Positions 36,773 through 63,550 of a stretch of DNA of 64,000 nucleotides are shown in pieces. The position numbers were made by a program, and so were the translations under genes. The stretch's first letter is position 1. Each line of letters opens with the position of its first letter. This stretch comes from Deltaproteobacteria bacterium (lineage in GTDB: Bacteria > Desulfobacterota > Binatia > UBA1149 > JAJCZL01), in assembly GCA_029262415.1 (NCBI GenBank), contig JAJCZL010000068.1, positions 2,372 to 66,371 of the forward strand. Reading direction: 5' to 3'. Below the pieces are notes generated by a model. The model saw only the letters and a list, made by a program, of their open reading frames with translations, was not told the origin of the DNA and made no database searches.

Positions 36773-36773
36773 C

Positions 36774-38673: not shown

Positions 38674-38693
38674 CAGCGGCCGTCGGCCGGCGG

Positions 38694-43761: not shown

Positions 43762-43764
43762 CGC

Positions 43765-44763: not shown

Positions 44764-44906
44764 CAGGGTCATCGGTTACAGCGGACACGGCCCGACGCAA
44801 ATCGGATCGGCCGCCACGGTCATATTTGCAGACGGAATGGCGTATATGCGTCGTTGAGAACCCCGGTGACGATTCACAACGCGTGTCCGGATCGGAGGTT
44901 CGCCCC

Positions 44907-45125: not shown

Positions 45126-45141
45126 GACCGAGCCCTTCCTT

Positions 45142-45687: not shown

Positions 45688-45900
45688 CCTGCTAGATAAC
45701 GTGAGATTGGAGTTGGGTGCAAGGCAGCAGCTGTGGCTGCGGGTCGCGGTGGGAGTGTCGAAAACACGGATTCCGGCATTTAGAGTGCCCGGTCTAAGTG
45801 GCGAACTCACACAAAAAGACTATTTCTACACTTGGCCCGGTGTCGGCACGGTTTGTACGCAGCCGTGGATTGGCCACACACCTCTTCTCCTTTTAACTTG

Positions 45901-47262: not shown

Positions 47263-47280
47263 GCTTTTAGTCGGGGGCGG

Positions 47281-48273
47281 CTACCCCAGGAAACAGTTCT
47301 CGTTGTGCCAGGTCAGCGTGGCAGCATCGGGTCGGTCTGATTCTGTGTGGGGAACGTTGATCTGTTTCCCGTGAAGCGGGTAGTACGTGCGCCCGTTCTC
47401 AAAGTCTGCTTTCAAGCGTGCGCTGACTTCGAAACGGTGCTCGGGCGTGACCGTGACGTAGCCTTTGTCGAAGAGGCGATGGAAGTCCGAACGAAGTAGC
47501 AAGCCGTTCGCCGTGGCGTGCTCGCCACCCTTGGCGTACGGGCGAATGTGTGCAGCCTCCAGAGCCGGCAGCGAGTGCTCGGATGAGACGGCGCAGGTGC
47601 GTCCATACGCGTCCGTCACCGCGATGCGGAATGTCCCTTGGCCGAGGCGCGGCCTCACCAGAGTCGGCTGGCCGAAGCGTTCGGCCGGCTCGGCGATCGA
47701 CGGTGAAGAGGCGCCGCCAGCTGCTCGGGCGTAGTCGGCCTGGACGCGGGCCTGGCACTCTTGGTAAATGCGGAGTCCTTCACCCTGGCTGAGATCCTCT
47801 TGTCGACCTTGAACGGTCGCTTTTCCCCAATCGGACGGTTCTCGTACCCATTCACCTGGTGCAAAGAAGACGGGTTGGGTAATCATTAGACAGCCGACAC
47901 TGTAAGACCCACTTGGATCTCGTTTCTCGGGCTTTCGGTATCGTTCGATCCGCGCGACCATTTCTTCGAATGTTGTCGCTCCGTTTGCTTCTTCGAAGCT
48001 TTCCCAGGCGAGCCACGCAGGCAAGACTGAGGCACGCGCGAGAAACCCGAATCCCCCTATCGCGTTGTGCGGTGCCTTTAGCTTGAAGAAGAACGGAGTG
48101 CCCGGGGGCTTGCTGTGGAATGTCTTTGCGCCTGACGGTTGCCAGAAGTTCACTTCGTCCAACGTCTCGCGGGCGCGCAAGAACTCGTACCAATCAAAGT
48201 CTGTGGGTGCGATGATCCCGTGCATCCGAGTTATCTCTTCTATATAACCGCACCGTTGCGCGTGGCCTAACAA
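47281..48273 (-). CDS. PUA-like (EVE/ASCH-type) domain fused to HNH_2 nuclease; candidate modification-dependent restriction endonuclease
   Basis: N-terminal EVNFWQPSGAKTF...PGTPFFFKLK..NAIGGFG (PUA-like fold pattern); C-terminal CAVSSEHSLPALEAAHIRPYAKGGEHATANGLLLRSDFHRLFDKGYVTV (HNH_2 pattern). Confidence 0.55.
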   Translation of the reverse strand: MLGHAQRCGYIEEITRMHGIIAPTDFDWYEFLRARETLDEVNFWQPSGAKTFHSKPPGTPFFFKLKAPHNAIGGFGFLARASVLPAWLAWESFEEANGATTFEEMVARIERYRKPEKRDPSGSYSVGCLMITQPVFFAPGEWVREPSDWGKATVQGRQEDLSQGEGLRIYQECQARVQADYARAAGGASSPSIAEPAERFGQPTLVRPRLGQGTFRIAVTDAYGRTCAVSSEHSLPALEAAHIRPYAKGGEHATANGLLLRSDFHRLFDKGYVTVTPEHRFEVSARLKADFENGRTYYPLHGKQINVPHTESDRPDAATLTWHNENCFLG

Positions 48274-48320
48274 CCCAGGTGTTTCGTCGGCAACGCGATG
48301 CGTCGCGTACTGGATCGGGG

Positions 48321-48692
48321 ATGGGTATGAGTGATCAGGAGCGATCAGTTGGAGAGCTAAAACATCGAGTGGCGGACTTCTGTTCCGCGCGCGACTGGGA
48401 CCAATTTCACGGTCCCAAGTCTGTCGCAGCCGGTCTGGTCACGGAGGCGGCTGAGTTGTTAGCCGAGCTACGCTTCGCGACCGATGAACAAGAGATAGCG
48501 GCCGTGCAGGATCCCGCTCGCCGCGAACGGCTGGCCGATGAGTTGGCTGACGTGTTTTTCTTCCTGCTCCGTTTTGCCCAACGATTCGATTTCGATCTGT
48601 CCGAATGCCTGGACGCCAAGCTTGCAAAGAATGCCGAGCGTTACTCCGTTGCGAAGTCGCGCGGACGCAACGCGAAGTACGATGAGCTTTAG
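48321..48692 (+). CDS. MazG-like nucleotide pyrophosphohydrolase domain protein
   Basis: EAAELLAE...ELADVFFFLLRFA helix pair typical of the all-alpha NTP-PPase (MazG) fold; start between 48279 and 48327. Confidence 0.6.
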   Translation: MGMSDQERSVGELKHRVADFCSARDWDQFHGPKSVAAGLVTEAAELLAELRFATDEQEIAAVQDPARRERLADELADVFFFLLRFAQRFDFDLSECLDAKLAKNAERYSVAKSRGRNAKYDEL

Positions 48693-48695
48693 TCG

Positions 48696-50639
48696 ATGAG
48701 ACTCTACTCGGGGCCGGTCGACCGCTTCATCAGCGACACGGTTCGCAACCGTGTCGCTGACAAGCTGAAGGACGCATTCTTCGCCTATCACCGCTTCCAG
48801 CCGGGGCCGAGTGAAGTCACATCTTGGCGCAACTCGCTGCGCGCAACGGCGCAGGTCTTTCAAGAGGCGGGGTTCGACGACCACGGCGTCATCCTTGAAT
48901 ACCAACTGCCAATGACGTCGAAACGGCTCGATTGCATGGTCTCGGGCCGCGATGCCGCGGGTGCTCCAAACGCTGTGATCATGGAGCTTAAGCAATGGGA
49001 CAAATGCGAGGAGGCCTACGGTGACGAAGTGGTCGCCACATTCGTCGGTGGGGCTGTTCGTGAGGTGTTGCATCCGTCGGCACAGGTCGGCCGCTACCAG
49101 CGCTATCTAGAAGACTCGCACACGGCTTTCTACGATGGGGAGAACCCGATCAAGCTGAGTTCATGTGCATACCTACACAACTACACGCCTGTAGAGAACG
49201 ACCTGCTCTTGGCGGAAAAGTACCGTCCGCTGCTTGATGAGTTTCCGACCTACACAGCTGACGATGTCGATGAGCTGCTAGGGCACCTTACCGACAAACT
49301 CGGCGCAGGTGGCGGGATGCCGCTTCTCGAGCAGATCGAGGAGAGCCGATACCGGCCGAGCAAGAAGCTGTTGGACCACGTCGCCGGCGTGATCAAGGGG
49401 AAACCTGAGTACGTACTGCTCGACGAACAAGAGATTGTTTATGAGCGGGTGCTCTCCGCTGCGCAGGATGGGTTCGCGGATCGCAAACACGCTGTAGTGA
49501 TCGTGAAGGGTGGACCCGGTACGGGCAAATCGGTCATCGCGATCAATCTGCTCGCCGATCTCTCGTTGAAGGGCTTCAATTCGCACTATGCGACCGGTTC
49601 GAAGGCGTTTACTGAAACTCTGAGGAAGGCGGTTGGGAAGCGAAGCGAAGTGCAGTTCAAGTACTTCAACCAGTATGGCCAGGCGCAACCTAACGATGTC
49701 GACGTGCTGATCTGCGATGAAGCGCACCGGATTCGTGTGACGAGCAACGACCGGTTCACGCCGAAAGCGAACAGGTCGGACAACCCACAAATCGATGAGC
49801 TATTTGATGCCGCGAAGGTCAACGTATTCTTCATCGACGACAAGCAAGGTGTGCGGCCGCTGGAGATCGGTTCGGCTGATTACATCCGAGACGCTGCCGC
49901 CCGCCGTGGCAGCCGAGTGTTTGACTATCAGCTGGAGGCGCAGTTTCGGTGCGCCGGCTCTGACGGGTTCGTTAACTGGGTGAGCAATACGCTTGAGATC
50001 GAGCGTACCGCCAATGTGCTCTGGGACGCAGGCGACGAACAATTCGACTTTCGCATCATGGATTCGCCGGCTGCGCTCGAGACCGCGATTCGACAACGGG
50101 TGTTTGACGGAAACACCGGCCGAATGGTCGCCGGGTTTTGCTGGCCCTGGTCTAAACCGAAAGCAGATCGGACCCTAGAGGATGACGTTGTTATCGGGGA
50201 TTTTGGCCGCCCCTGGAATGCGCGCTCCGACGCCGGTCGACTCGCCCAGGGCATACCGAAGGAGTCGTTCTGGGCGACGGATCCGAACGGTATCGAGCAG
50301 GTCGGATGTGTATACACCGCTCAAGGTTTCGAATTCGACTACGTCGGCGTGATCTGGGGGCCTGACCTTGTTTACGACTTTGATGCGAACGCCTGGCGTG
50401 GTGACAAGACCGCGTCGAAAGACTCAACGGTAAAGCGTGCGAAAGAAGGGTTTACCGAGTTCGTTAAAAATACGTACCGCGTGCTTTTATCACGTGGGAT
50501 GAAGGGGTGCTACGTGTACTTCATGGACAAGGATACGGAGAGGTATTTTAAAAGTCGGATGGAGGGGTTGGATAAGGCGGCTGATCGATGGGGAGATTTG
50601 GAGGCGGCGGAATCGAAGCCGAAATACGGGTCTGAGTAG
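48696..50639 (+). CDS. DUF2075-family protein: N-terminal PD-(D/E)xK-like nuclease motif + SF1 helicase/ATPase core
   Basis: RLDCMV...IMELKQW (D..ExK); Walker A VKGGPGTGKS; Walker B VLICDEAHR; UvrD-like motif VYTAQGFEFDYVGV; start 4 nt after the MazG-like gene stop. Confidence 0.65.
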   Translation: MRLYSGPVDRFISDTVRNRVADKLKDAFFAYHRFQPGPSEVTSWRNSLRATAQVFQEAGFDDHGVILEYQLPMTSKRLDCMVSGRDAAGAPNAVIMELKQWDKCEEAYGDEVVATFVGGAVREVLHPSAQVGRYQRYLEDSHTAFYDGENPIKLSSCAYLHNYTPVENDLLLAEKYRPLLDEFPTYTADDVDELLGHLTDKLGAGGGMPLLEQIEESRYRPSKKLLDHVAGVIKGKPEYVLLDEQEIVYERVLSAAQDGFADRKHAVVIVKGGPGTGKSVIAINLLADLSLKGFNSHYATGSKAFTETLRKAVGKRSEVQFKYFNQYGQAQPNDVDVLICDEAHRIRVTSNDRFTPKANRSDNPQIDELFDAAKVNVFFIDDKQGVRPLEIGSADYIRDAAARRGSRVFDYQLEAQFRCAGSDGFVNWVSNTLEIERTANVLWDAGDEQFDFRIMDSPAALETAIRQRVFDGNTGRMVAGFCWPWSKPKADRTLEDDVVIGDFGRPWNARSDAGRLAQGIPKESFWATDPNGIEQVGCVYTAQGFEFDYVGVIWGPDLVYDFDANAWRGDKTASKDSTVKRAKEGFTEFVKNTYRVLLSRGMKGCYVYFMDKDTERYFKSRMEGLDKAADRWGDLEAAESKPKYGSE

Positions 50640-50649
50640 CGCTTCCTCG

Positions 50650-53600
50650 ATGGCGTTGAATTGCCCTTTCTGTTCCCCCGCCTCCGAGTCCGTCTTCCAC
50701 GCGGGCTCAGCGATTCTCGCCCTCTGGGACGCCCACCCCGTCTCCCAGGGCCACGCCCTCCTAATCCCTAAACGCCACGTCGAAACCTGGTTCGACGCCA
50801 CGCCTGAGGAACAAGCCGAACTCACCGCCGCGATTGCAATAGCTAAGCAGGCGATTGAAGAACAGCACACGCCAGACGGCTACAACATCGGCATCAACGT
50901 CGGCCCCGAGGCAGGACAAACCGTCTTTCACCTGCACGTCCATGTGATCCCGCGCTACCGTGGTGACGTCGACGATCCGCGTGGCGGCGTGCGCTCGGTA
51001 ATTCCTGCCAAGAAAATCCCCGAGAGCGCCCTTACAACCGGCCCGGTCGACGGTGACGAGACGGTCAAGGACACCGAGAACGCTCGATACGCTCCGTCGG
51101 CACTCACGGGTCTGCCGCGCAATCGCGGGATCGTCACGGGTGGCCTGGACGATCCGCTCATCTATCACCTACGCGCACACCTTGACGACGCACGACGCGC
51201 CGATATCGCCGTTGCCTTTGTGCTCGAGACCGGTGTGATCGAAATCGAGGCGCACCTGGCCGAGATCGTCACCAAAGACGACGGCCGCCTGCGTTTGCTA
51301 ACCGGCGACTACCAAGGCGTGACCGAACCCGGCGCGCTGCGCCGCTTGCTCGATCTGACAGCACCTCATCCCGAGCGCGTCGAGCTGCGCGTGTACGAAA
51401 CCGGAGGCGGTAGTTTTCATCCAAAATCCTACATCGTTGAGAACCGCCGCGGCGAGGTTACGGCCTATGTAGGCAGCTCGAACCTGACGCGCACGGCACT
51501 GCGCACCGGCGTTGAATGGAACTACCGACCAGGGAGTGTCTCGCATCCCGAGGGCGTGACCGACGTGCAAGCTGCGTTCGAGCGACTTTTCAAGGACCCA
51601 AAGACCAAGCCGCTCGATGCCGTATGGATCGATAGCTATGAAGCCCGGCGCGCAACGGCGCAGACGCGCATGGACGCACCGGCCGGTATTCCCGATGAAC
51701 CCCCGCCGCCACCGCCCGATCCGCACGCTATCCAACAAGAAGCGCTCGCCGCACTAGGCGCCACGCGCGATGATGGCAACCGCGCAGGCCTTGTGGTGAT
51801 GGGCACGGGCCTTGGTAAGACCTGGCTTGCGGCCTTTGACAGCGCCGTGGCCGGTGCGCGACGCGTGTTGTTCGTCGCGCACCGCGAAGAGATTCTGGCA
51901 CAGGCGCTTTCAACATTTCGCCGCATCCGTCCTGAGGCCAAGCTCGGCTTCTTTAACGGGCTGGCGAAGATCGCCGATGCCGACGTGCTGTTTGCGTCTG
52001 TGCAGACACTCAGCCGCCGCAACCACCTGGACCGCTTCGACGCGCACGATTTCGACTACATTATTATCGATGAATTCCACCACGCCGCCGCGGCGACTTA
52101 CCGGCGTGTGATCGGTTACTTTGAACCGGAGTTCCTGCTGGGACTGACGGCAACGCCCGAGCGCACCGACGGCGGCGACTTGCTCGGCCTTTGCGGTGAA
52201 AACCTCGTTTACCGCTGCGACTTCCTGCGCGGGATCCGCCAAGGCCTGCTCTCACCGTTTCACTACTTCGGCGTGCCCGATGAGGTCGACTACGCGAACA
52301 TCCCGTGGCGAAGCTCGCGCTTTGACGAAGCAGAACTAACTCTCGCCTTGGCCACCGAGAAACGCGCGGCCAATGCGTTGGCGCAGCTTCGCGAGCGCGG
52401 CGGCACACGGACTTTGGCTTTTTGCTGCTCAAGGCGCCACGCCGATTTTATGTGCGAATACTTCAGGGGCGCGGGTATGCGCGCGGCGGCCGTCCACTCG
52501 GGCGAGACTTCCGACCCGCGCGCTACTTCCTTGGAACTGCTCGAAGAAGGCGAACTCGACGTCGTTTGCGCAGTAGACATGTTCAACGAGGGCGTCGACA
52601 TCCCCGAGGTCGACACCGTCTTGATGCTGCGCCCAACCGAGTCGCGCATCCTTTGGCTGCAGCAGCTCGGGCGCGGCTTGCGGCAGTGCGAGGGCAAGAC
52701 GCTTAAGATCATCGACTACATCGGCAACCACCGCAGCTTCTTGCTAAAACCGCAGGCGCTGTTCGGGTTGGAGCAGGGCGATCGCCACGTCCGTGATGTG
52801 CTGGTGGCCGTCGCCGCTGGCTCGTACGACCTACCGCCCGGATGTGAGGTGACCTACGACCTTGAGGCTGTGCGCATCTTCGAGGCGATGCTTCATTCAG
52901 AGAGCGCGGGCGACCTGATGCGCACGTTCTACGAGGATTTTCTTGCCGAACATGGCGAACGTCCGACCGCCCCGGAAGCGTTTTATGCGGGCCTTTCGCC
53001 GCGCTCGGTTCGCAAGAGCTACGGGTCGTGGCTTGGGTTCATAGAGCAGATGGGTGGGCTCACCGAGCCCGAGCAGGCCGTGCGCGCGGGTAGCACCGGC
53101 ACGCTACTTGAGCACCTCGAGACCACGCCGATGTCGCGGAGCTTTAAGATGCTCGTGCTGCTCGCGATGATCGAAGCGGAGGCCTTTCCGGGGCGGATCT
53201 CGATTGAGGATCTTGTCGAGAGAGTGCGAAAGATGGCGCGCCGGTCGGTTCGCGTGCGTACCGATCTTGGCGTCGATATCGAAGACGCCGAAGTAGTGCG
53301 TCGGCATCTCGAACAGAATCCAATTGCAGCCTGGGTCGGAGGGCAGGGGACCGGCGGTGATGCCCACTTTGCTTACGAAGACGGCGAGTTCCGTACGGTG
53401 TTCGGCGCCGGCGACGTTAGTGATGCGCATGCGTATTTGGATCTTGCGCGCGAGTTGGCCGAGTGGCGTTTGGTGCAGTACTTGGATCGGCCGGGGCAAT
53501 CTGACGGCGATCGGATTGTTTGTAGCGTCACGCACAACGCGTCGGGCACGCCCATCTTGATGCTGCCCGATCGCGAGAGGGTGGCTCAGATTCCGAAGGG

Positions 53601-54282
53601 CTGGGTTCGGGTACGAATCGGCGAGGAAAACTTGGAGGCGAACTTCGTAAAGATCGCAGTCAACGTCATGCGGCGTGAAGATACCGAGGAGAACGTACTT
53701 GGGGAAGTATTACGGGGATGGTTCGGTGAGAAGGCCGGCGCATCGGGGACTGCGCAGCGGGTGGTGTTTGAGAGAGGCGAGGATGCGTATGAGTTGGTGC
53801 CGGTCGGGGTTGATGTCCCAGGCAAACCGTCTGGTGCGATCGTGGGCAAGGCCTACAAGCGTGCCGATATTCCCGGGTTGTTTGACCAGGAGCTGACGGT
53901 CGATTTCCAACGCTCGGGTTTCATCGTGAGAGACGGGCACATGTACTTGCTCGTCACGCTTGATAAGTCCGGCTTCGCCGAAGAACACAAATACGGCGAC
54001 CGGTTTCTCTCAGGAGAACTATTCGAGTGGCAGAGTCAGAACCGAACGACGCAGAGTGGTAAGCACGGGCAGCTGATCAAGGGGCACCGAGAGTCTGGCG
54101 TAACGGTGCATCTGTTTGTGCGCGAGCGTAAGGACGTCAGAGGCACGGCATTGCCGTATGTGTATTGCGGCGACCTCGACTTCGTGGATTGGGAAAGAGA
54201 GAAACCGATTACCGTGCGCTGGCGGTTGCAGGTACCGCTTTCAGCCGATCTTCAACGAAGGTTCGCGGTTGGTAGGTCGTAG
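50650..54282 (+). CDS. 1210-aa multidomain protein: HIT (histidine triad) - PLD/HKD nuclease - SF2 helicase (ResIII + HelicC) - DUF3427
   Basis: HIT HLHVHVIP (aa 94-100); HKD FHPKSY...GSSNLT (aa about 256-280); Walker A GTGLGKT and DEFH; helicase-C QQLGRGLR; C-terminal DUF3427-like region; start 10 nt after the DUF2075 gene stop. Confidence 0.7.
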   Translation: MALNCPFCSPASESVFHAGSAILALWDAHPVSQGHALLIPKRHVETWFDATPEEQAELTAAIAIAKQAIEEQHTPDGYNIGINVGPEAGQTVFHLHVHVIPRYRGDVDDPRGGVRSVIPAKKIPESALTTGPVDGDETVKDTENARYAPSALTGLPRNRGIVTGGLDDPLIYHLRAHLDDARRADIAVAFVLETGVIEIEAHLAEIVTKDDGRLRLLTGDYQGVTEPGALRRLLDLTAPHPERVELRVYETGGGSFHPKSYIVENRRGEVTAYVGSSNLTRTALRTGVEWNYRPGSVSHPEGVTDVQAAFERLFKDPKTKPLDAVWIDSYEARRATAQTRMDAPAGIPDEPPPPPPDPHAIQQEALAALGATRDDGNRAGLVVMGTGLGKTWLAAFDSAVAGARRVLFVAHREEILAQALSTFRRIRPEAKLGFFNGLAKIADADVLFASVQTLSRRNHLDRFDAHDFDYIIIDEFHHAAAATYRRVIGYFEPEFLLGLTATPERTDGGDLLGLCGENLVYRCDFLRGIRQGLLSPFHYFGVPDEVDYANIPWRSSRFDEAELTLALATEKRAANALAQLRERGGTRTLAFCCSRRHADFMCEYFRGAGMRAAAVHSGETSDPRATSLELLEEGELDVVCAVDMFNEGVDIPEVDTVLMLRPTESRILWLQQLGRGLRQCEGKTLKIIDYIGNHRSFLLKPQALFGLEQGDRHVRDVLVAVAAGSYDLPPGCEVTYDLEAVRIFEAMLHSESAGDLMRTFYEDFLAEHGERPTAPEAFYAGLSPRSVRKSYGSWLGFIEQMGGLTEPEQAVRAGSTGTLLEHLETTPMSRSFKMLVLLAMIEAEAFPGRISIEDLVERVRKMARRSVRVRTDLGVDIEDAEVVRRHLEQNPIAAWVGGQGTGGDAHFAYEDGEFRTVFGAGDVSDAHAYLDLARELAEWRLVQYLDRPGQSDGDRIVCSVTHNASGTPILMLPDRERVAQIPKGWVRVRIGEENLEANFVKIAVNVMRREDTEENVLGEVLRGWFGEKAGASGTAQRVVFERGEDAYELVPVGVDVPGKPSGAIVGKAYKRADIPGLFDQELTVDFQRSGFIVRDGHMYLLVTLDKSGFAEEHKYGDRFLSGELFEWQSQNRTTQSGKHGQLIKGHRESGVTVHLFVRERKDVRGTALPYVYCGDLDFVDWEREKPITVRWRLQVPLSADLQRRFAVGRS

Positions 54283-54347
54283 TCCCGGGAATGGCTGCCG
54301 CAATCGCCGCGGGTAAATCCATCATGCGAAGGCGACGCTAGCCCTCC

Positions 54348-54941
54348 TCACCTCAACTTCCCCTCCGTCCGCAGCACCGCCTTTGTCAGCAACCGGATAA
54401 TCTCGACCTCGGTCACCCCGAATCGTGCAAGCAATTCGTAGACCCGGCCGACAGTTGTTTGGACCTCCTTTCTCGCCCGTCGCGTCTTCTCGGTTTGGCC
54501 GGCTGCTTCGATTTCGGCCGGGGTGGCTTTGAGCAAGGCGGCTACGCGTAGAACCAGAGTTGCATCGATCGGACTGTCTGGCACCGGCACGTCTTTTCGT
54601 GTCGACCCAGCGGTTCGCGCGCCCGCCGGTTCCTTGGGCTCAAAGCCGCGAACGGAGAACTTGCCGATTTTCAGTTGGCCGCCCTCAATCCCGATCTCGA
54701 TATCCTTGCTTCGCGGCAGCATCGTTCGCAGCTTTACGAGCGGAGTAACGCTGATCGAGATTCGCCCAAGTGACGCCCCACGCGCAGGGATCGTGTGTTT
54801 TACGCGCGGCATCTCGAATCGAACTGCATCGCCGGTAACGGTCACGACAACTCGGCACGCGCCGAACTGCTTCTCGGCGGTCGCCAACTGTTTGAGTGCG
54901 TCGCGCAGTTCTCTGCGGTCTACCTTTGTACGGCTGGCCAT
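54348..54941 (-). CDS. hypothetical protein (no recognizable domain)
   Basis: 197-aa ORF with M start, convergent with the giant helicase gene; no motif recognized. Confidence 0.35.
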   Translation of the reverse strand: MASRTKVDRRELRDALKQLATAEKQFGACRVVVTVTGDAVRFEMPRVKHTIPARGASLGRISISVTPLVKLRTMLPRSKDIEIGIEGGQLKIGKFSVRGFEPKEPAGARTAGSTRKDVPVPDSPIDATLVLRVAALLKATPAEIEAAGQTEKTRRARKEVQTTVGRVYELLARFGVTEVEIIRLLTKAVLRTEGKLR

Positions 54942-55082
54942 CGGGCAGGCAGCGTAGCGGGAAGTTGGGTGCGATGAAACATGAGATGAAACACGAGCGG
55001 TGGCGACCCAGTCTTCGCCGCGAATCTTGAGGGTAGAGACGGTGCGAGTTTAGCGCGAAGGCAAGGCTACGGAACCAAACGA

Positions 55083-55283
55083 CTACTTGCCCTTAGCGTC
55101 CTGTGTTTGACGGGGTTTGTCGTTCGCTTCTTCACGTGACCGCCTCGTCTCGTCGTTTCGCAAGATACTGTCTACACTCGGCGTTCGCATCCATTCAGGC
55201 CAGGCCTCGACCTCCTTGGCCGTACGGTGCACATCCTTCCAGAAATCTTCGCTGCTAGCTTTCTTGTTCTTTTTCATGAGCAC
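55083..55283 (-). CDS. small Lys/Glu-rich hypothetical protein
   Basis: 66-aa ORF upstream of 54348..54941 on the same strand; local GC lower than surroundings. Confidence 0.2.
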   Translation of the reverse strand: MLMKKNKKASSEDFWKDVHRTAKEVEAWPEWMRTPSVDSILRNDETRRSREEANDKPRQTQDAKGK

Positions 55284-55489
55284 TCACCTTCAAGGATTCT
55301 CCGATTCCGTCAAGAAGAGCAACTGCCTTCTTTTCGCGTTCTGGGTATGCGATTGAAACCATTGGCGTACGAGGGTGCGAGTCCACCGCACGCTCTGTTT
55401 ATTACTGATGGGATTGCAACTCCCCCCGGCCCCGCCTCGCCCCGCCCCGGCTTGTCACCACGACTTCCACAGCTTAGTTTCGACACCCA

Positions 55490-57182
55490 CATGGCTGGTC
55501 GCAAAAAGCCGCGCCGCCGTCGCGCTCGGACATCCGCGCGCGCGGAGGGCTGCGGGCAGTGGGTTCTTGCGGTGCGGAGGTTTCCCGGCGTGGTTGCCGA
55601 GCCCGGCCGCGACGAAGTCCGTCCGCTGATTGTCATCTGCTACGAGACCGAATCCGACCTTGTCGTGGGACAGACGCTGGTGATGCCCGATGAGCTGACC
55701 GGCGCGTGCGCACGTGTGCTGAGCAGCGCGTGCGCGGCACCGTCGGCGGGCGCCCCGAGGACCCCGGCCCGTGTGTGGGTGGAGAGCGTGGAGATCGCAG
55801 AAGAACTCTCCTCCATCAAAGGTCTTCGCGCCGAGGTTGTCGTCGGCGAGGTGCCGGAGATCGATGGGGTGATGGATTCGTTGCGGGCCTCGTTGGCCGG
55901 CAGCGGCCGGGCTTCCGACGAAGGGCCGGGCTACCTGCAAGACGGCGGTTTATCGCGCGAGACGGTTGGCGCGTTGTTCGAGGCGGCGCGCGCACTGTAC
56001 GCCGTCGCACCGTGGAAGGATTGCAACGAGTGTCTTGCTCGCATCGATATTCCCGAGCTCGACGTGGCGGGGGCGTGTCTCGTGGTCATCGGCGCGCTCG
56101 GCGATGTTTTCGGGTTTTTGCTGTTCCCCTCGGCCGATGCCCATGAGCAGTTCATCGAAGCCACCGCGCGTACGCGACGCGGCGGGCCCGACCGTTTCGG
56201 CACACCGTTTACGTCGTTGACGTTTGTGTGCGCAGCCGATCTGCCCTCGCGGCACCGCCGCGAGGCCATGCGCGAGCGTTGGCCGGTAGCCTCCAGCGAA
56301 GCCTACCCGTTGCCCGAACGTCTGGACTCAGACGGACTCCGACGCTCCCTCACCGAACGCGACATGAAGGTGCTCGGCGCAGTCACCTCGGCTCTGTGCG
56401 CTTTCGCCGTTCGCCACCCACGATCGCTTACCGATCCCGACAGCGCTCCGGTGCGTGAAACCAGTTCGGGCCGCGACAACATCGCGGTTCGAATCACCGT
56501 GCCCTATGAGGCCTACGAGTTATTTGAAGCCAAACCAACGGGTGCGGCGGGCAAACGCGAGTCGAAGCTTAAGGTCGAAGACCGCTTACTCGGCAGAATG
56601 CTCGGGTTCGCATGCGAGACGCTGGGGCGCAGCTTCGTTGCGGAGATGGAAAGCGACTTCGACGACATCGAGTCTGCCGTTCAACTCGTGCTGCCCTTCG
56701 GCTTGTTTCATCGCCTCTACGGCGGGCGCACGGTTGCCGCGCGCTTCTTTGATGCCCACGGCTCAGAGCTTGCGGGCGAGGAGGCAAAGCTGTTTGCGGC
56801 GCACCGAGAGGGTTGGTTGAGCATTTGGGAGGTCGAGCAGGTGCAGCGCGGGCGCGGCCTGGAGTTGCTTGACGTCTTATCGGGCCAACGGTGCACGGTT
56901 GTCGAGAAAACGCTTTCTCGCAGTGTCGCCGAAGGGCATTGCCTGCTTGCGTGTGTGCTGCGCATGGATGGCCGGTTCGTCATCAACGGCATGCACGGGC
57001 GTCCGCTGGCGGCGCCTGTTGCCGCGCTAGTCGCCGAACGTGGGCGCAGGCGACTGCGCCGCAAGCGCGAGGTTCCGGTGGAGCGCTTGCGCGACGGCCG
57101 CTTCGCGCGCGCACTGCTCGGATACTGGGAAGACGCGGTTGCGACGCTCGATGCGGCTTTGCGGCCTAGCGGCCGCGGATAG
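55490..57182 (+). CDS. hypothetical protein (about 564 aa from MAGRKKPRRRR)
   Basis: Long ORF 55227..57182; Arg-rich N-terminus then acidic/Leu-rich body; no motif recognized. Confidence 0.35.
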
Positions 57183-57570
57183 AGAGAGCCGCGCGCCGCA
57201 AACCGCCGTGCCGCGCGAGCACCTCGAAATCGCTGTCGCAGTGTAGCACCGCGACGTCCTCGCGGATTGCCACCGCGGCGATCAGGCAGTCAATGAGTTT
57301 ACGAACGGTCTCGCCTTGCGCCCGGCATCGGCGGTGCAGTGCAGCGGCTTGGTCGTAGTCGCCTGGGCCGGTTGCAAGCACTGTTGCGCGGGCGAGCAAA
57401 CGCCTAAGGCTCATCAGGTGGCGGTCGTCGCGCGCCCCGGCCATGACCTCCATGCGGATCGGGTCGCAGACGGCGATTTCATCATCGAGCAGACGGTCGA
57501 CGCTGATGCATGCCGGTGAGCCGGTATCGCGCAGAAACTCGACCCATGCAGAGGTGTCAACGAGGGTCAC
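57166..57570 (-). CDS. vapC: PIN-domain toxin VapC
   Basis: MTLVDTSAWVEFLRD N-terminus; paralog of 36140..36541. Confidence 0.7.
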   Translation of the reverse strand: MTLVDTSAWVEFLRDTGSPACISVDRLLDDEIAVCDPIRMEVMAGARDDRHLMSLRRLLARATVLATGPGDYDQAAALHRRCRAQGETVRKLIDCLIAAVAIREDVAVLHCDSDFEVLARHGGLRRAALSIRGR

Positions 57571-57769
57571 TCGCCCGCCCGCTGCGCATTTGTTCCAGAT
57601 CTCCCTCCCAACCAGAGCCGCGCAGGCGCCTGGCCTCGTCGAGGTCCAGCGGTTCTGCGGCGAGCAGTTGTAGCGCGAGGTTCACGGCGTCGCGTTTGGT
57701 CGAAAGGCGGTAGCGACGCATAACCTCGGCGCAAGCCCGCTCGTCTATATCAATGTTCGTGCGCGCCAT
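57557..57769 (-). CDS. vapB: VapB-family antitoxin
   Basis: MARTNIDIDERACAEVMRRYRL N-terminus typical of VapB; overlaps vapC start by 14 nt. Confidence 0.6.
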   Translation of the reverse strand: MARTNIDIDERACAEVMRRYRLSTKRDAVNLALQLLAAEPLDLDEARRLRGSGWEGDLEQMRSGRASDPR

Positions 57770-58043
57770 ACACCACCTATACACCAATACGTGGCCAGCC
57801 TACAACCCGTCAAATCAGGCGCTATTGGGCACTTTTGCTCGACGACAATTACTTTTGCCGGTTGGGGTGGGGAGGTATATTGCGGGTCGGCGCTGCGTGG
57901 GCGCGCATGGGTAGACGACGCGCAGGGATTTGAGTCGGTTATTTGTTGATGGTAATAACTGGCATAAATTTGGTATTTAGATAGATTATTACCACTATTC
58001 GCGCAAGCCCTGCGCCCCGGTACTAGAGGGAAAGTCCTAATAA

Positions 58044-59099
58044 GTGAGATCTCTCGCCCCAGATTTCCTTGAGAAGCTTAGATTCTCGGTGGAGCAAACA
58101 TCGTCGCTGACCGCGCTCGGGCAGGCCTTCGCTCAGCAGCAGCTCTTCGAGAAACAGAGCCCCGAGGCACTTAAGACGCTTCGCACCTCGGCGATCGTCG
58201 AATCGACTGAATCCTCAAACCGTATCGAAGGTGTGGTTGCACCCAAGCAACGATTCGCGGCGATCGTTGCCGGTAAGTCGGAGCCCCGCAACCGCTCCGA
58301 GCAAGAGATCCTTGGTTACCGTGGGGTTCTTGAAATGGTGCATTCGAACGCATCGGAAATCCCGATCACGGCGAACTCGATCCGGCAGCTACACAAAGAG
58401 GTTTACAGGTATCACCCGAATGACGGCGGGAACTGGAAACCAGTAGACAATGAAATCGTCGAAAAGAATACGGCCGGTGAGATCGTGCGCGTTCGCTTCA
58501 AACCGGTCGCAGCTGTGGCGACGCCGCAGGCGATGGCCGACATCGAGCGACTGTACCGCCAGGCCACGACCGACGGTTGCGAGCCGCTCGTGGTGGCACC
58601 GCTTCTGATTCTGGACTTCTTGTGCGTCCATCCTTTTGCTGACGGAAACGGCCGAGTCAGCCGCCTATTGACGCTGCTGGCTCTGTACCACGCCGGCTTC
58701 AGTGTTGGTCGCTACATAAGTCTGGAACGTCTGATTGAAAACACGCAGTCGGACTATTACCGCGTGCTCGAAGCGAGTTCTCAGCGGTGGCACGACGGCA
58801 AGCACGACCCCCACCCTTGGCTCGAGTATTTCTGGGCGATTCTCCTAGCTGCCTACCAGGAGTTCGCCGAGCGCGTCGGCAAAGAATCGAGCGGTCGTGG
58901 TAACAAGACGATGCGTATCCGGGCGGCGATTGAACGCCGAGTCGGCGCGTTCCGCATGAGCGATCTCGAGCGTGACTGTCCCGGGGTGAGCCGAGAGATG
59001 ATCCGGGTTGTTCTGAACGAACTGCGTGACCACGGGCGCGCGGAAGTCACAGGCCGTGGTCGCGGCGCCGAGTGGCACAAGCTGGAGCCGAAGGATTGA
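58044..59099 (+). CDS. Fic-family protein (AMPylase-type)
   Basis: Canonical Fic motif HPFADGNGRVSR; AT-rich promoter region with 8-bp IR upstream. Confidence 0.8.
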   Translation: MRSLAPDFLEKLRFSVEQTSSLTALGQAFAQQQLFEKQSPEALKTLRTSAIVESTESSNRIEGVVAPKQRFAAIVAGKSEPRNRSEQEILGYRGVLEMVHSNASEIPITANSIRQLHKEVYRYHPNDGGNWKPVDNEIVEKNTAGEIVRVRFKPVAAVATPQAMADIERLYRQATTDGCEPLVVAPLLILDFLCVHPFADGNGRVSRLLTLLALYHAGFSVGRYISLERLIENTQSDYYRVLEASSQRWHDGKHDPHPWLEYFWAILLAAYQEFAERVGKESSGRGNKTMRIRAAIERRVGAFRMSDLERDCPGVSREMIRVVLNELRDHGRAEVTGRGRGAEWHKLEPKD

Positions 59100-59437
59100 T
59101 CGCTGCCGAGATCACTCGTACCTGAGAAACGCCTCGTACCTCTCCTCAAGAAACTCAGCCTTGGGCCGCAACTCCGCACTCCGCGGCACGTGGATCGGCT
59201 GATCATGCACTCCCCTTGTCCCTTCTCTGGCGGCGCGGTAGTGCGGATCGACAACGGAATCTCTGCGAGCACCGCCGGTTTGAAGATGCCTTGTTGCGAG
59301 ACTAGCGGCACCCGCCGGCCTTCGAGTTGGAAGCCCTCGCTTAGAACCTTCCAAGGAAGTACGTCTCGGCGTAGGCCTATCCACTCCGTGTAATATTCTG
59401 CTTGCATTTGATTGCACTGCTTCGTACTCTCTTCATC

Positions 59438-59638
59438 ATGGCGTCGGTGACCTATCGAATTGACGACGATCTGAAGGCGGCACTGGAAGAGTTCTGCGAC
59501 AAGCACGGCCTTAAGCACCAGGCTGTGGTCGCCGAGGCACTGGCCTCATGGCTTGAGGACGCCGAAGAGATTGCCGCGATCGAGGATCGTCGCGAGGGCC
59601 CGTGGGTCGAGTGGTCCGATGTCCGCACCAAAGTATAG
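59438..59638 (+). CDS. RHH antitoxin (RelB/DinJ/ParD-like)
   Basis: MASVTYRIDDDLKAALEEFCDKHGLKHQAVVAEAL is typical of an RHH antitoxin; overlaps downstream toxin. Confidence 0.55.
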   Translation: MASVTYRIDDDLKAALEEFCDKHGLKHQAVVAEALASWLEDAEEIAAIEDRREGPWVEWSDVRTKV

Positions 59639-59903
59639 GCTCGTCGTTCATCGTGCGGCGGTCGGCGAAATCGAGTCGCTGTCGAAGAAGATCAAACCAA
59701 AGGTCATTGCAGCGATCGACGCGCTTGCCGAAGACCCGCGTCCGCCCGGCGCCGCCGCGTTGCGCGGACGCAAAAGCGCGTTTCGGCTTCGCGTAGGTGA
59801 ATACCGCGTTCTCTACGAGATACACGCCACCGAGATCGTGGTTTACGTTGTCGCCGTAGGACACAGACGCGATGTGTATGTGCGCACGGTGCGGCGGCGG
59901 TGA
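59619..59903 (+). CDS. RelE/ParE-family toxin
   Basis: RLRVGEYRVLYEIHATEIVVYVVAVGHRRDVY C-terminal signature. Confidence 0.65.
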   Translation: MSAPKYRLVVHRAAVGEIESLSKKIKPKVIAAIDALAEDPRPPGAAALRGRKSAFRLRVGEYRVLYEIHATEIVVYVVAVGHRRDVYVRTVRRR

Positions 59904-60019
59904 CATGACCGCACCCGGGTCGATGCTGCTTCGGCCCCCCAAAAAAAGACCGCTCGAATGCCCTGGTCAGGAAATAGAGATTGAGAGGCGATAGTAATAG
60001 CTAGATTCTAGCCAGAAAT

Positions 60020-60292
60020 ATGATGACCGCAGCGATTACCGACCTGAAGAACCGTTTGAGCTACTATCTGCGCCGCGTTGCACGCGGGGAGAGCATCACC
60101 GTGCGTGGCAACCCCGTCGCTCGGATCACGCCGGTCGGTTCGCACGGCGCGGAACTGGAAGGGCTGGCGGCAGCGGGGCTGGCGAGGCTTCCGGTCGAGC
60201 CCCTTCCCAAGGGTTTCTGGACTCGCTCGCTTCCAAAGCTAAACAAATCGCTGCGCGCATACCTTGCTGAGGACCGCGAGGATCGGTTCTGA
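60020..60292 (+). CDS. Phd/YefM-family antitoxin (no cognate toxin adjacent)
   Basis: ITDLKNRLSYYLRRVARGESITVRGNPVARI is typical of Phd/YefM. Confidence 0.6.
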   Translation: MMTAAITDLKNRLSYYLRRVARGESITVRGNPVARITPVGSHGAELEGLAAAGLARLPVEPLPKGFWTRSLPKLNKSLRAYLAEDREDRF

Positions 60293-60398
60293 TCCGATTT
60301 TCTGCCCCGCGTAGGAGTCACGCCAACAGGTTCCCGTAGCGTACTGTTCCCGTATCGTGCGTTGATCTACACGCGTCCGGTTGCTAGGTTTTGCCGCC

Positions 60399-61064
60399 AT
60401 GGCTGCGTCCAAACGCAAGACTCAGCGCCCGTCGCGCGCATTGAAGTCGGTAGCCAAGAAAGACCCCGAACCGTTGTTGCAACTCCTCATTGTGTTGACC
60501 GGCTGCGACGCGCCGGTGTGGCGGCGCATTCTCGTTCCTGCGCGCTATAACTTCTGGGAACTCCACGTCGCGATCCAAGACGTTATGGGCTGGCTTGACT
60601 ATCATCTACACGAGTTCGTCGTGACTGACCCCGAGACGATGGGTGCCCTACGAATTGGGCTTCCCGACGATGAATTCTTAGATGCACCTCTTACCTTGCC
60701 GGGTTGGAAGATACCGATCGAAGGCTACTTTGGTACAGGGCAGAGCCTACCGTCACGATACACCTATGACTTCGGTGACAATTGGGAACACGTTGTGCAC
60801 CACGAGGATTTCCAAGTGGCCGAACCGGGCATCACCTACCCGGTGTGTTTGGCCGGCGAGAACGCGTGTCCGCCCGAAGACGTTGGGGGCACACACGGGT
60901 ATCGCGAGTTCCTAAAAGTGATCGCCGACCCGAGAGACCCCGAACACGAGCACTTTCGGCGATGGGCCGGTGGAGACTTTGATCCGCGCAGGTTTGACCC
61001 TGCGGCGGTGCGTTTTGACGACCCGGCCAAGCGCTTTAGGCTGGCGTTCGGCCGCGCGGGGTGA
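60399..61064 (+). CDS. plasmid pRiA4b ORF-3-like family protein
   Basis: VWRRILVP...LHVAIQDVMGWLDYHLHEF...DFGDNWEH signature of the PRiA4_ORF3 family. Confidence 0.55.
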   Translation: MAASKRKTQRPSRALKSVAKKDPEPLLQLLIVLTGCDAPVWRRILVPARYNFWELHVAIQDVMGWLDYHLHEFVVTDPETMGALRIGLPDDEFLDAPLTLPGWKIPIEGYFGTGQSLPSRYTYDFGDNWEHVVHHEDFQVAEPGITYPVCLAGENACPPEDVGGTHGYREFLKVIADPRDPEHEHFRRWAGGDFDPRRFDPAAVRFDDPAKRFRLAFGRAG

Positions 61065-61818
61065 TCGGCCGCGCCGCGCGTCTTCTGCTTCCACGCAGCG
61101 CACGCACGAGCGCACCGAGTCGCGGTGTCGGCTGTTGACGGGCCGCCTTGTCGAGCGCGGTGATCAGATTGCGTCTGAGTTCTTCGACTACGCCGAGAAC
61201 TTGTTCGGCCGTTTGCGCGGGTGAAAACCCGCACGCAGACACCTTCAACTCAGTGCTGATGACCGACACGAGAGTTGCCTCGGCGTTCATGCCCGCATCG
61301 ATCTCGTAACCGAGCGCGATGAGGTCGCCGAGGCCGAGTTCGGGGAAGCGTGAAAACAGCCAGTCGAGGTCATAGAGGTCTTTTTCCGAGCATTGGCTGA
61401 CCAACGTTGCCGCTTTCATCTTCAGCAATGTCTCGAGATCGGCAACGCTGACGCGATCGTTCGCCTCGATCGCGGTGCCGACGACGAACACTTGCGGGTC
61501 CAAGACGACTTGAGTTGCGAAAGAGTGACCGTCCAATCGAAAGTCGCCCGCATAGAGTTGCCGACTGCTCTGCGGTTCGGAGGCTTGCGCGCCGATCCGG
61601 GCGAGCGAGCGAACCGCCAGCACGGTTGCTCGAAACGCAGTGTCGTCACGGGCGAATAGGTCAAGGTCGTCCGACCTGCGGTGACCTGCGTAGTATCCGG
61701 CCAACGCGGTTCCCCCCACGAGCATGCAGCCGGACACGTCTTGGGCGAATACGTGCGTCAAGGCACGGTACAGAGGTGCGGGAAGGACCTTTTGCGCTAG
61801 TTCGCTACTTGGTTGCAT
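61036..61818 (-). CDS. AbiEii/AbiGii-like nucleotidyltransferase toxin family protein
   Basis: GGTALAGYYAGHRRSDDLDLF NTase motif; start refined to MQPSSE at 61818, overlapping the upstream XRE gene by 22 nt. Confidence 0.6.
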   Translation of the reverse strand: MQPSSELAQKVLPAPLYRALTHVFAQDVSGCMLVGGTALAGYYAGHRRSDDLDLFARDDTAFRATVLAVRSLARIGAQASEPQSSRQLYAGDFRLDGHSFATQVVLDPQVFVVGTAIEANDRVSVADLETLLKMKAATLVSQCSEKDLYDLDWLFSRFPELGLGDLIALGYEIDAGMNAEATLVSVISTELKVSACGFSPAQTAEQVLGVVEELRRNLITALDKAARQQPTPRLGALVRALRGSRRRAARPITPRGRTPA

Positions 61819-62267
61819 TTCCACTGGACCAACGTCTGCAAATCTCCACGCCGCTTTGGAGCAGTGAAGCGGGAGTACTCGCCGAAGCGTTTCCACACCG
61901 AGGGCCCGAGTATTTTTGCGGCGGCGTACACCCCGTAAACCTCGACGAGTCGCCCAACCGCGCGCGGCTCCCAGCCGATCAGCGCGACCGCGAACTCGGT
62001 CAGGCCTTCGTAGAGGCGATCCCAGAGCAGGTGGGCCCTCAGCGCATCTTCGTTCTCGCCGAGGCACGGCAGCGGTTGCATCAGAGAGTCGAGCGAGACG
62101 TCGAGCGCGCGCCCGATCCCGGCCAGGTGAGAGCCGCGCACGCCGGCGGCTCCTTCGTGTCGAAACCATTTTGAGACCGCCTGGCGACTTAGACCGACGG
62201 CTCTGGCAAGGTCGCTCTGAGACCAACCCCGGGCTAGGAGATAGGCCTTAAGTGTCTGAAGTTCCAC
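61797..62267 (-). CDS. XRE-family HTH regulator with C-terminal extension
   Basis: LLARGWSQSDLARAVGLSRQAVSKW helix-turn-helix. Confidence 0.55.
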   Translation of the reverse strand: MELQTLKAYLLARGWSQSDLARAVGLSRQAVSKWFRHEGAAGVRGSHLAGIGRALDVSLDSLMQPLPCLGENEDALRAHLLWDRLYEGLTEFAVALIGWEPRAVGRLVEVYGVYAAAKILGPSVWKRFGEYSRFTAPKRRGDLQTLVQWKCNQVAN

Positions 62268-62295
62268 GCTAATAGGATAGGCGTGTGCCCGGCTG

Positions 62296-62315
62296 TTGTC
62301 AATCTAAGTTGACAA
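62296..62315. promoter_or_regulatory. inverted repeat TTGTCAA-N6-TTGACAA in a divergent AT-rich promoter region
   Basis: Perfect 7-bp arms; between the XRE gene (minus) and mobile mystery protein A gene (plus). Confidence 0.35.
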
Positions 62316-62465
62316 TTACGTCAGTATTTGTACGCTGCTGTAACAACCCTAGTAACAGAATTCACTCACCTGCTCGATCTTGTAGCAGCCTACCGCCTGC
62401 CATAGAATGACAAAATATTAGGTTATAGCCTGGTATTATATAATGCTTTATCAGGGTATGGCCTT

Positions 62466-62927
62466 ATGACTAATCAGAAGAAAACCGTGGCACGAAAGCG
62501 TTTGGACGAACGGTTAGCTCCACTCAAGCCCGCTTCGCGCTTCCTGGCGCCGCCTAAGGGCTGGGTGCGGGCGATCCGCGACGCGCTTGGGATGTCGGCT
62601 GCGCAACTCGCCAAGCGCGTGGGCGTCCGGCCGCAAAGCGTGTCCGATATCGAGAGGTCCGAAGCCAACGGCACCGTTCAGCTAAACACCCTGCGCAGGT
62701 TTGCCGAAGCGCTCGACTGCACGGTGGTCTACGCGCTGGTGCCCAACTCATCGCTCGAGGGTTTGGTGCAAGACCGCGCACGCGAGATTGCCCGCAAGCT
62801 CCTCGCGCGCAGCGATCACAGCATGGATCTGGAAGCGCAGGGATTGTCACCGCAAGAGCGTGAAGCGCAGATCGACGCCTACGTGCGCGAGCATCTCAGG
62901 GTGCGCGATCTCTGGGAGAACTCGTGA
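62466..62927 (+). CDS. mobile mystery protein A (XRE-type HTH)
   Basis: HTH SAAQLAKRVGVRPQSVSDIE; gene pair with the downstream Fic-like gene, overlap ATGA-style. Confidence 0.6.
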   Translation: MTNQKKTVARKRLDERLAPLKPASRFLAPPKGWVRAIRDALGMSAAQLAKRVGVRPQSVSDIERSEANGTVQLNTLRRFAEALDCTVVYALVPNSSLEGLVQDRAREIARKLLARSDHSMDLEAQGLSPQEREAQIDAYVREHLRVRDLWENS

Positions 62928-63511
62928 GCGATCCACTCGACGGGCTTGCAGGCGGCACGCCGCTGGAGCCCGCGGAACGCGAGGGTCTGTTGCAGACGTG
63001 GATTACCTTTCGCGGCGAACTGAACGAGGCTGAGCAAACCAACATATCTGCCGGCCTCGCCTGGGTTCATCGCCAAGCGCGCAAAGACATCCTTAATGAA
63101 GGATTCATGAGAAACCTTCACAGGCGCCTCTTTGGCGATGTTTGGGCGTGGGCCGGCGAGTTTCGCAGCACGCCGCGCGATCTCGGCGTCGAACCCGCGC
63201 TGATTCGCTCAGAGATAAGGCTGACTTTCGACGATACGCGCTACTGGATCGAGAAGCAGACTTATCAACCCGACGAGATCGCCGTGCGCTTGCACCACCG
63301 CCTGGTGTTGATCCATCCGTTTGCGAACGGCAACGGTCGCACGACCCGACTTATTGCCGACCTGCTCGCAGAACGCCTGGGGCGTGAGCCTTTCACCTGG
63401 GGGCCACAGGGTCTCGACGATATCGGCGAGACCCGTGCGCGATATATCGCCGCGCTCAAAGCGGCCGACGATCATGATATCGAGCCGCTGCTCGAGTTCG
63501 CGCGGTCTTAG
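62924..63511 (+). CDS. mobile mystery protein B (Fic-domain)
   Basis: Fic motif HPFANGNGRTTR; 195 aa. Confidence 0.65.
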   Translation: MSDPLDGLAGGTPLEPAEREGLLQTWITFRGELNEAEQTNISAGLAWVHRQARKDILNEGFMRNLHRRLFGDVWAWAGEFRSTPRDLGVEPALIRSEIRLTFDDTRYWIEKQTYQPDEIAVRLHHRLVLIHPFANGNGRTTRLIADLLAERLGREPFTWGPQGLDDIGETRARYIAALKAADDHDIEPLLEFARS

Positions 63512-63550
63512 CCTTCTGCGCTCCGCGACCGCTTCACGAGGGCCGCGCTC

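Follow-up and report, generated by a model that had tools for sequence, protein, structure and literature searches.

Hotspots of defence genes that lie between core genes and carry no integrase have been described in Pseudomonas aeruginosa, as cDHS1/2 (PMC10250203), and in Escherichia coli, as hotspot #37 (PMC10121019). At the level of single systems, Millman et al. described the 'Nhi-like' architecture as an N-terminal nuclease joined to DUF2075, and Lutz et al. suggested a coupling of DUF2075 with DUF3427 nucleases. Here we analysed a 64,000-nt stretch, hereafter the window, of contig JAJCZL010000068.1 (assembly GCA_029262415.1, Deltaproteobacteria bacterium), and within it a block at positions 47281-63511, hereafter the island, which separates a major facilitator superfamily (MFS) transporter gene from a NnrU family gene. 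With moderate confidence, we regard this block as a chromosomal defence island that is not mobile itself, and that was most likely built up and remodelled piecemeal at a permissive site beside def-fmt-rsmB, as self-contained modules were gained, replaced or lost to decay separately.

Genes were taken from the open reading frame (ORF) listing together with a gene call guided by GC content at third codon positions (GC3), and were assigned through Pfam, PADLOC, NCBIfam and PHROGs searches. The island comprises 17 genes and one gene remnant. Genes of defence, abortive infection (Abi) or toxin-antitoxin (TA) type account for 14 of these 17, whereas the remaining 47 kb of the window have only 3 such genes out of 39 (Fisher p = 6e-8), so that unrelated systems of these kinds are packed more densely than in the background, as befits a defence island. 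PADLOC alone matched mREase_IV, HNH, SoFic, AbiEii, PDC-S04 and PDC-S41. An initial annotation, made from the letters alone, had described a block of about 16 kb dense in defence, TA and Abi genes, and had listed its gene order between the MFS and NnrU-like genes; family searches bear out the density and essentially reproduce the order. Two details needed revision. Instead of three uncharacterised genes we found only two, plus the remnant of an HNH gene at approximately 59112-59230, and in the 'MazG/DUF2075/helicase trio' all three genes are present but the third, labelled a helicase, is a homologue of type IV restriction enzymes.

Signatures of mobility are absent. Recombinase, integrase and transposase families gave no match among the 17 island genes in Pfam, NCBIfam, PADLOC or PHROGs, and with 89% of the island coding and a largest free gap of at most 550 nt, no gap is big enough for a recombinase gene; the absence of a recombinase ORF, as first noted, was thereby confirmed. 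The same is true of flanking direct repeats, for which our search returned chance-level matches only, the longest pair spanning the island being 23-27 nt at 72-74% identity. No tRNA gene adjoins the island, the sole tRNA of the window (Pro, 25820-25896) lying 21 kb off. A perfect 15-nt inverted repeat does occur either side of the island (47076-47090 and 63570-63584), and is nominally rare: inverted-repeat matches that reach 14 nt turned up in only 8 of 3000 shuffles, and in 7 of the 3915 window pairs drawn at random (~0.2-0.3%). Both arms are inside coding sequence and encode W-L-F-G-V. We rejected this repeat as the ends of an element, the MFS arm being conserved coding sequence in homologues, and it is probably an unexplained coincidence. 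A plasmid origin was also rejected, since a 19-kb megablast query brought up a single PLSDB match (73%, 600 nt), and so was a phage origin, the DUF2075 family being rare in phage records and in IMG/VR (4 and 6 matches, respectively).

The composition of the island is almost native. Its tetranucleotide distance falls inside the range of the rest of the window (maximum z of 1.8), so that the k-mer scan proposed alongside the initial annotation brought no anomaly to light (z below 2); GC content is 0.58-0.61 in the island versus approximately 0.62, and GC3 is 0.706 versus 0.737 (p = 0.009). These data bear on the idea of a single old integrative or transposable element, be it an integrative and mobilisable element (IME), the remnant of an integrative and conjugative element (ICE) or transposon cargo, whose integrase or transposase and end repeats have been lost. 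Such an element would be in keeping with the slightly lower GC3, with the HNH gene remnant taken as decay, and with the cargo-type families of the island, namely pRiA4_ORF3, mobile mystery proteins A and B, and DUF2075. Indeed, the association of several families with plasmids or mobile elements was upheld, as homologues of pRiA4_ORF3 are found on 741 plasmids and those of DUF2075 on plasmids too. We nevertheless consider a single old element unlikely, as there is no recombinase remnant, att-like direct repeat or tRNA target, the border gaps between convergent genes measure just 18 and 39 nt, tetranucleotide usage cannot be told from that of the flanks, and the modules have unrelated distributions elsewhere.

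Where the initial annotation had left the choice between an old degraded element and a recombination hot spot, the evidence thus leans towards a hot spot with piecemeal accretion and away from one old element. Piecemeal accretion is favoured by the lack of att-like repeats and of a recombinase remnant; by near-native composition; by the division of the region into a number of transcription units, with AT-rich promoter/operator regions in front of three; and by the modules' unrelated occurrence elsewhere (MazG beside DUF2075 in 49 of 73 loci, a SauUSI-like gene in 2 of 80, pRiA4_ORF3 on plasmids). The HNH remnant and an orphan Phd antitoxin suggest turnover, which fits the same reading. The missing mobility signatures are an observation, and from them and these arguments we infer the history of assembly.

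Near-native composition would equally fit a locus that is not accessory, i.e. a long-resident, vertically inherited immune locus of the lineage, as would the tight packing between the flanking genes and the fact that the window has TA pairs from these families at another site too (36.1-37.4 kb). Among the 120 DUF2075 matches listed, though, identity is 61-66% over 96-100% of the query, and the few with source names come from Omnitrophota and Actinomycetota. Identity across phyla (~60-66%) is as high as that of the housekeeping protein Fmt to its nearest relative (61%), which suggests that at least the DUF2075 module has spread horizontally. The HNH remnant and the orphan antitoxin, as signs of ongoing turnover, also speak against long residence, and we judge it quite unlikely.

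At its left border, the island abuts the MFS gene (45832-47262, plus strand; PF07690, 6.6e-20), and at its right border the gene of the NnrU family membrane protein (63551-64000, minus strand; PF07298, 9.3e-25), both of which converge on it, with gaps of 18 and 39 nt, respectively. Directly upstream of the MFS gene are the core genes def, fmt and rsmB (42397-45810). In the three nearest fmt-bearing contigs (L088-L090) the order def-fmt-rsmB-rpe-TerB/DnaJ is kept, and beyond def these contigs differ from each other and from the window. Because content beyond def differs in each relative, the island sits at a synteny break, on the edge of a conserved block. This is consistent with a variable region or fluid neighbourhood, and is no proof of one. 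A Logan assembly made independently from run SRR15505517 contains both island junctions and an internal piece, 99.85-99.98% identical to the window, and the block is therefore not an assembly chimera. Look-ups of exact proteins returned nothing but short Logan contigs from this run. Against the window, Logan contig L001 has 3 mismatches over 2,055 nt (61946-64000, the right end of the island) and contig L007 a single one over 5,560 nt (42291-47850, the left flank); this difference may reflect strain microdiversity. The contig breaks near 47850 and 61946 were considered as population heterogeneity and rejected, the Logan assembly being in 3-5 kb pieces everywhere.

The flanks also allow for a larger mobile element, with a recombinase beyond NnrU, outside the window, and with the MFS and/or NnrU genes as further cargo. 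The window stops 450 nt into NnrU, the MFS gene is without a close orthologue or synteny in relatives (its closest homologue is 53% identical and stands in a different context, and a scan of species-representative genomes with the protein gave best matches of 41% and 32% identity), and synteny with relatives ends already at def. Against this, contig L001, which holds the complete NnrU gene (235 aa), runs about 1.3 kb past the window through NnrU into another gene and bears no recombinase signature, and over 45 kb to the left there is no recombinase among the genes examined. We regard such an element as very unlikely.

Several points weigh against a piecemeal chromosomal island. The right flank is known for only ~1.3 kb past the window, so a recombinase could lie further to the right, and the source contig, at 66.5 kb, is just ~2.5 kb longer than the window. 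The nearest genomes share only ~55-60% protein identity, so that the label 'accessory' of the initial annotation stands as a possibility. Near-native composition, as said, suits vertical inheritance equally well; all functions of island genes are deduced from their families, and two genes (for the 197-aa and the DUF6930/DUF7309 proteins) have no assignable function.

The left-hand operon opens with a gene for a MazG-like all-alpha NTP pyrophosphohydrolase (48321-48692, plus strand; PF12643, 7.6e-11), whose EXXE...EXXD metal-binding motif is 96-100% conserved across 53 homologues. The gene after it encodes a 647-aa protein (48696-50639, plus strand) that combines a PD-(D/E)xK-like domain with a DUF2075 helicase of Schlafen group 3 type, in superfamily 1 (SF1; PF09848, 4.5e-93). 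E68, D79, E97 and K99 of this protein are invariant, and so is its Walker A motif GPGTGKS. In an AlphaFold2 (AF2) model, the E/D/ExK residues fall on consecutive predicted strands beta1-beta3 of the N-terminal domain (pLDDT 70-94), and the order of its strands agrees with the fold; this signature points to a PD-(D/E)xK-like nuclease. The best Foldseek matches of the DUF2075 protein were SLFN11, Dda, RecD2 and Dna2, and a paralogue has weak NERD and HSDR_N matches.

DUF2075 homologues are numerous and unusually well conserved, with 7,933 proteins at E<=1e-10, and remoter ones (29-54% identity) occur on bacterial and archaeal plasmids. We compared neighbourhoods across 80 metagenomic loci (L008-L087), 73 of which had enough upstream sequence. 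In 49 of these 73, the gene that immediately precedes DUF2075 on its strand encodes a MazG homologue (median gap, 3 nt). HNH_2 proteins like that of the island adjoin DUF2075 in 14-15 of the 80 loci, other HNH families do so in about ten more, and a SauUSI-like gene in just two. Further neighbours of DUF2075 homologues are BrxC, DrmMII, DRT reverse transcriptases, GajB, IetA, methyltransferases, DpdB and Cas1-like genes, such that homologues are found among BREX, DISARM, DRT and Gabija genes; a Priestia plasmid carries a parallel DUF3578-pyrophosphohydrolase-DUF2075 operon. Many homologues, of approximately 800 aa (P0136, P0122), have at their C-terminus an S24 peptidase domain of the LexA/UmuD type that bears a GxSM motif; the island copy lacks this domain. 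S24-fused and MazG-associated forms as mutually exclusive classes were rejected: MazG accompanies both long (12 of 14) and short forms (34 of 56), and the S24 domain is therefore independent of it.

Of the described systems, Nhi and 'Nhi-like' proteins (Bari 2022, Millman 2022) are the closest to this pair, as they share an N-terminal nuclease-like domain and a DUF2075 helicase. However, the Nhi and AbiO models of PADLOC match the island protein weakly and in the P-loop region only (6e-10 and 3e-10, respectively; residues 238-390 for Nhi). Nhi is moreover a single-gene system, whereas the family of the island has a conserved MazG partner, often an HNH gene, and in many members an S24 domain; because the MazG partner is conserved, the family is not a single-gene system. 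We found no description of a MazG-DUF2075 pair in the searched literature, with no co-mention of DUF2075 and MazG, and PADLOC has no MazG model. Tentatively, we propose that MazG and PD-(D/E)xK/DUF2075 may be the central components of an anti-phage system that is distinct, very widespread and so far undescribed. In it, MazG (together with the HIT domains of neighbouring nucleases) would hydrolyse nucleotides, in mechanistic coupling with an attack of the nuclease-helicase on foreign, probably hypermodified DNA, with a reader-HNH endonuclease as a frequent partner and, sometimes and in other genomes, a LexA-like S24 fusion.

The third gene of the operon (50650-54282, plus strand) starts 10 nt after the DUF2075 gene and encodes a 1210-aa protein with Pfam matches to HIT, PLDc_2 (2e-6), ResIII (5.5e-36), Helicase_C (2.5e-13) and DUF3427 (2.9e-21). 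The motifs HLHVH (HIT), HPK...GSSN, GTGLGKT and DEFH are all present, and the protein matches PADLOC mREase_IV (1.5e-113) and PDB 7clg (9e-98), the structure of SauUSI. With SauUSI it shares a nuclease of the phospholipase D (PLD) family, a superfamily 2 (SF2) helicase and a C-terminal DUF3427, and by this domain content it is predicted to be a SauUSI-like type IV restriction enzyme, which would cleave 5mC- or 5hmC-containing DNA with the use of ATP. SauUSI has 953 aa, the island protein an additional N-terminal HIT domain (50650-50970) with intact HxHxH and a longer linker before DUF3427. The island gene also differs in its setting, downstream of MazG-DUF2075, which was seen in only those two of the 80 other loci. 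Of the 150 best clusters from an exhaustive search of 1.84 billion representatives, 27 align from a point within the HIT domain onwards (query residue 23 or earlier). The searched literature held no co-mention of SauUSI with a HIT domain. The island contains no methyltransferase gene, which is compatible with a modification-dependent action of the putative SauUSI-like enzyme. A HIT domain occurs outside SauUSI-like proteins as well: in one of the metagenomic loci (L074, 4792-5799), a neighbour of the DUF2075 gene encodes an HNH-HIT fusion.

Divergent from this operon lies the gene of a 314-aa HNH_2 endonuclease (47281-48225, minus strand; PF13391, 4.4e-11; PADLOC HNH PDLC04132, 3.8e-17) with an N-terminal domain of about 190 aa. 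In a profile search, PDB 6yex, an entry with the title 'HNH endonuclease', was matched in its HNH part only (2e-9); we take this structure to be VcaM4I. The N-terminal domain itself has no Pfam or PDB match, six homologues lack any PUA-type Pfam match even at E<=10, and a single-sequence AF2 model failed (pLDDT 32). Hence, of the label PUA-HNH that the gene had first received, the HNH part stands and the PUA part has no detectable signature. PUA-HNH endonucleases (TagI, PDB 6ghs; the VcaM4I/TspA15I group, Lutz 2019) have in common with it a C-terminal HNH_2 domain, a length of ~310 aa and, likewise, no adjoining methyltransferase, but our searches did not place the N-terminal domain of the island protein in the PUA superfamily (EVE, SRA, ASCH, YTH). 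We consider the protein a candidate type IV (modification-dependent) restriction enzyme. Between fic and relB there is also a pseudogene fragment (59112-59230, minus strand), the C-terminal remnant of a second HNH_2-type endonuclease. In ORF 59112-59417, the final 36 codons are 50% identical (E = 9e-8) to the C-terminus of an HNH protein encoded beside DUF2075 in locus L079, and the rest of this ORF has no coding signal.

The right-hand part of the island is made up of TA, Fic and Abi modules. A VapBC pair (57166-57787, minus strand) consists of VapC (57166-57570; PIN, 3.6e-18; NCBIfam equivalog at 133 bits versus a cut-off of 80) and VapB (57557-57769; VapB_antitoxin, 5e-12). Divergent from it is a SoFic-like Fic gene (58044-59099, plus strand; PF02661, 2.9e-12), whose product has an intact HPFADGNGR motif and matches the PADLOC SoFic model over its full length (2.3e-35), yet at 51.6 bits stays far under the cut-off of 550 of the NCBIfam SoFic equivalog NF046030. 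Next come a RelB-like ribbon-helix-helix antitoxin (59438-59638, plus strand; RelB, 3.4e-4) and a ParE/RelE toxin (59619-59903, plus strand; ParE_toxin, 9.6e-11, over the Pfam cut-off); NCBIfam matches to RelB-like and RelE/StbE families were under their cut-offs. The orphan antitoxin (60020-60292, plus strand; TIGR01552, 35.4 bits versus 20.8; PF02604, 7.4e-6) passes the cut-off of the Phd/YefM family, yet unlike in Phd-Doc TA systems it is without a toxin partner, as no toxin ORF follows it. Beyond it lies the gene of a pRiA4b ORF-3 family protein (60399-61064, plus strand; PF07929, 1.9e-54). Transposase or resolvase genes lie at most 2.5 kb from pRiA4_ORF3 in the three plasmid regions inspected, and genes of this family typically travel as passengers on plasmids and transposons. 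Phd and pRiA4_ORF3 as a new TA-like pair were considered and rejected, these three plasmid contexts showing transposases or a resolvase and no antitoxin.

Two further modules lie at the right end. A gene for an AbiEii-like nucleotidyltransferase (61036-61818, minus strand; PF08843, 31.4 bits versus 22.5; PADLOC AbiEii, 3.2e-9) is overlapped by one for an XRE-family helix-turn-helix (HTH) protein (61797-62267, minus strand; HTH_3, 1.8e-9). The nucleotidyltransferase is thus as in AbiE, but in place of the upstream AbiEi-type winged HTH its partner is an XRE/HTH_3 protein without an AbiEi match. Mobile mystery protein A, an XRE HTH protein (62466-62927, plus strand; TIGR02612, 186.9 bits versus 122.6), and the Fic/Doc-type mobile mystery protein B (62924-63511, plus strand; TIGR02613, 270.7 bits versus 124.4) are encoded by adjoining genes with a 4-nt overlap, both over cut-off, and PADLOC assigned them to PDC-S04 (1.6e-22). 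They may form a TA-like pair of HTH and Fic proteins.

The initial annotation had also pointed to three AT-rich promoter patches, and we located all three in promoter regions with palindromes. In the divergent vapB/fic promoter region (57788-58043), GC content drops to 0.25 at 57940-57999, the lowest value of any 60-mer in the window, and an inverted repeat lies at 57938-57959. The divergent region between the XRE and mobile mystery A genes (62268-62465, GC 0.43) contains the third-lowest 60-mer (62401-62460, GC 0.30) and a perfect palindrome, TTGTCAA-N6-TTGACAA (62296-62315), which overlaps the sole sigma-70-like site in the 19 kb scanned (62302 to 62274, minus strand). The third patch (59967-60026, GC 0.37) includes a palindrome just upstream of Phd (60000-60012). 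This arrangement suggests that the modules may be autoregulated. A consensus terminator scan returned no more sites than in shuffled sequence, and an Rfam search of the island found no RNA family.

The two genes that could not be assigned lie between the left and right parts. The first encodes a 197-aa protein (54348-54941, minus strand) with zero matches in Pfam, NCBIfam, PADLOC, PHROGs and PDB. The second (55227-57182, plus strand; probable start at 55491) encodes a DUF6930/DUF7309 protein that scores just over cut-off (PF22007, 28.4 bits) and has no match in PDB, PADLOC or PHROGs.

Outside the island, the window holds a second TA cluster (36140-37438), with a paralogous VapBC pair (36164-36687), in which VapC is 40% identical to that of the island and VapB is truncated, and an intact Phd + PIN pair (36774-37438). 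This cluster belongs to approximately 11.7 kb of DNA (25800-37500) that are extra in the window relative to L088-L090, between TerB-DnaJ/tRNA-Pro and rpe. The block encodes a methyltransferase, Cys-rich secreted proteins, an MMPL protein, the TA pairs and, on a reading of the translation alone, a P450-like protein; abutting tRNA-Pro, it could be another insertion. About 4 kb more are extra between rpe and rsmB (38300-42400). Of these, 1.1 kb (41267-42396) show no convincing ORF and no Rfam match, and include a 60-mer (41681-41740, GC 0.28) that ranks second in AT content in the window. Past the TerB-DnaJ gene, some 1.3 kb from tRNA-Pro, a gene at 23296-24474 (minus strand) encodes a protein of 392 aa, without a Pfam match, whose C-terminal part has the HNH-like motif HHGIPYGKGG...RCRAHN.

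Taken together, the observed domain content, catalytic motifs, operon geometry and gene pairing elsewhere allow us to propose how the island might work, and we infer its anti-phage function and substrates accordingly as predictions from protein families. Each module is predicted to act independently. The left 7 kb would form a block against foreign, probably base-modified, DNA, consisting of the divergent reader-HNH endonuclease and an operon that runs from the MazG-like protein through the PD-(D/E)xK/SF1 helicase to the SauUSI-like enzyme. The latter would be an ATP-dependent PLD nuclease-helicase, with DUF3427 as a putative reader of modified cytosine and an extra HIT nucleotide-hydrolase domain. 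Nucleases and helicases would degrade invading DNA, while MazG and HIT may act on nucleotides, either to sanitise non-canonical dNTPs or to control the nuclease. A target of modified DNA is plausible because the block unites two type IV-like nucleases, no methyltransferase, a nuclease-helicase and two nucleotide-hydrolase domains. The right 6 kb would provide growth-arrest, abortive-infection and addiction modules: VapBC with its PIN RNase, a SoFic-like AMPylase, RelB/ParE, XRE with the AbiEii-like protein, and HTH with Fic/Doc.

As a defence cluster, the island is a routine case of a well-described phenomenon, and shows that defence genes cluster without an integrase in a deeply branching uncultivated lineage too. 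It offers three leads: the conserved pair of MazG and nuclease-helicase, the recurrent fusion of HIT to SauUSI-type and HNH nucleases, and the N-terminal domain of the HNH protein as a candidate reader. All three bear on the combination of nucleotide-pool enzymes with nucleases against phages with modified DNA. Core defence hotspots are defined by variable occupancy across strains, whereas the island belongs to an unsampled lineage and its composition is not visibly foreign. With these hotspots it shares the juxtaposition of unrelated defence, Abi and TA modules between ordinary chromosomal genes, and on its left a flank, def-fmt-rsmB, that is both core and syntenic in relatives.

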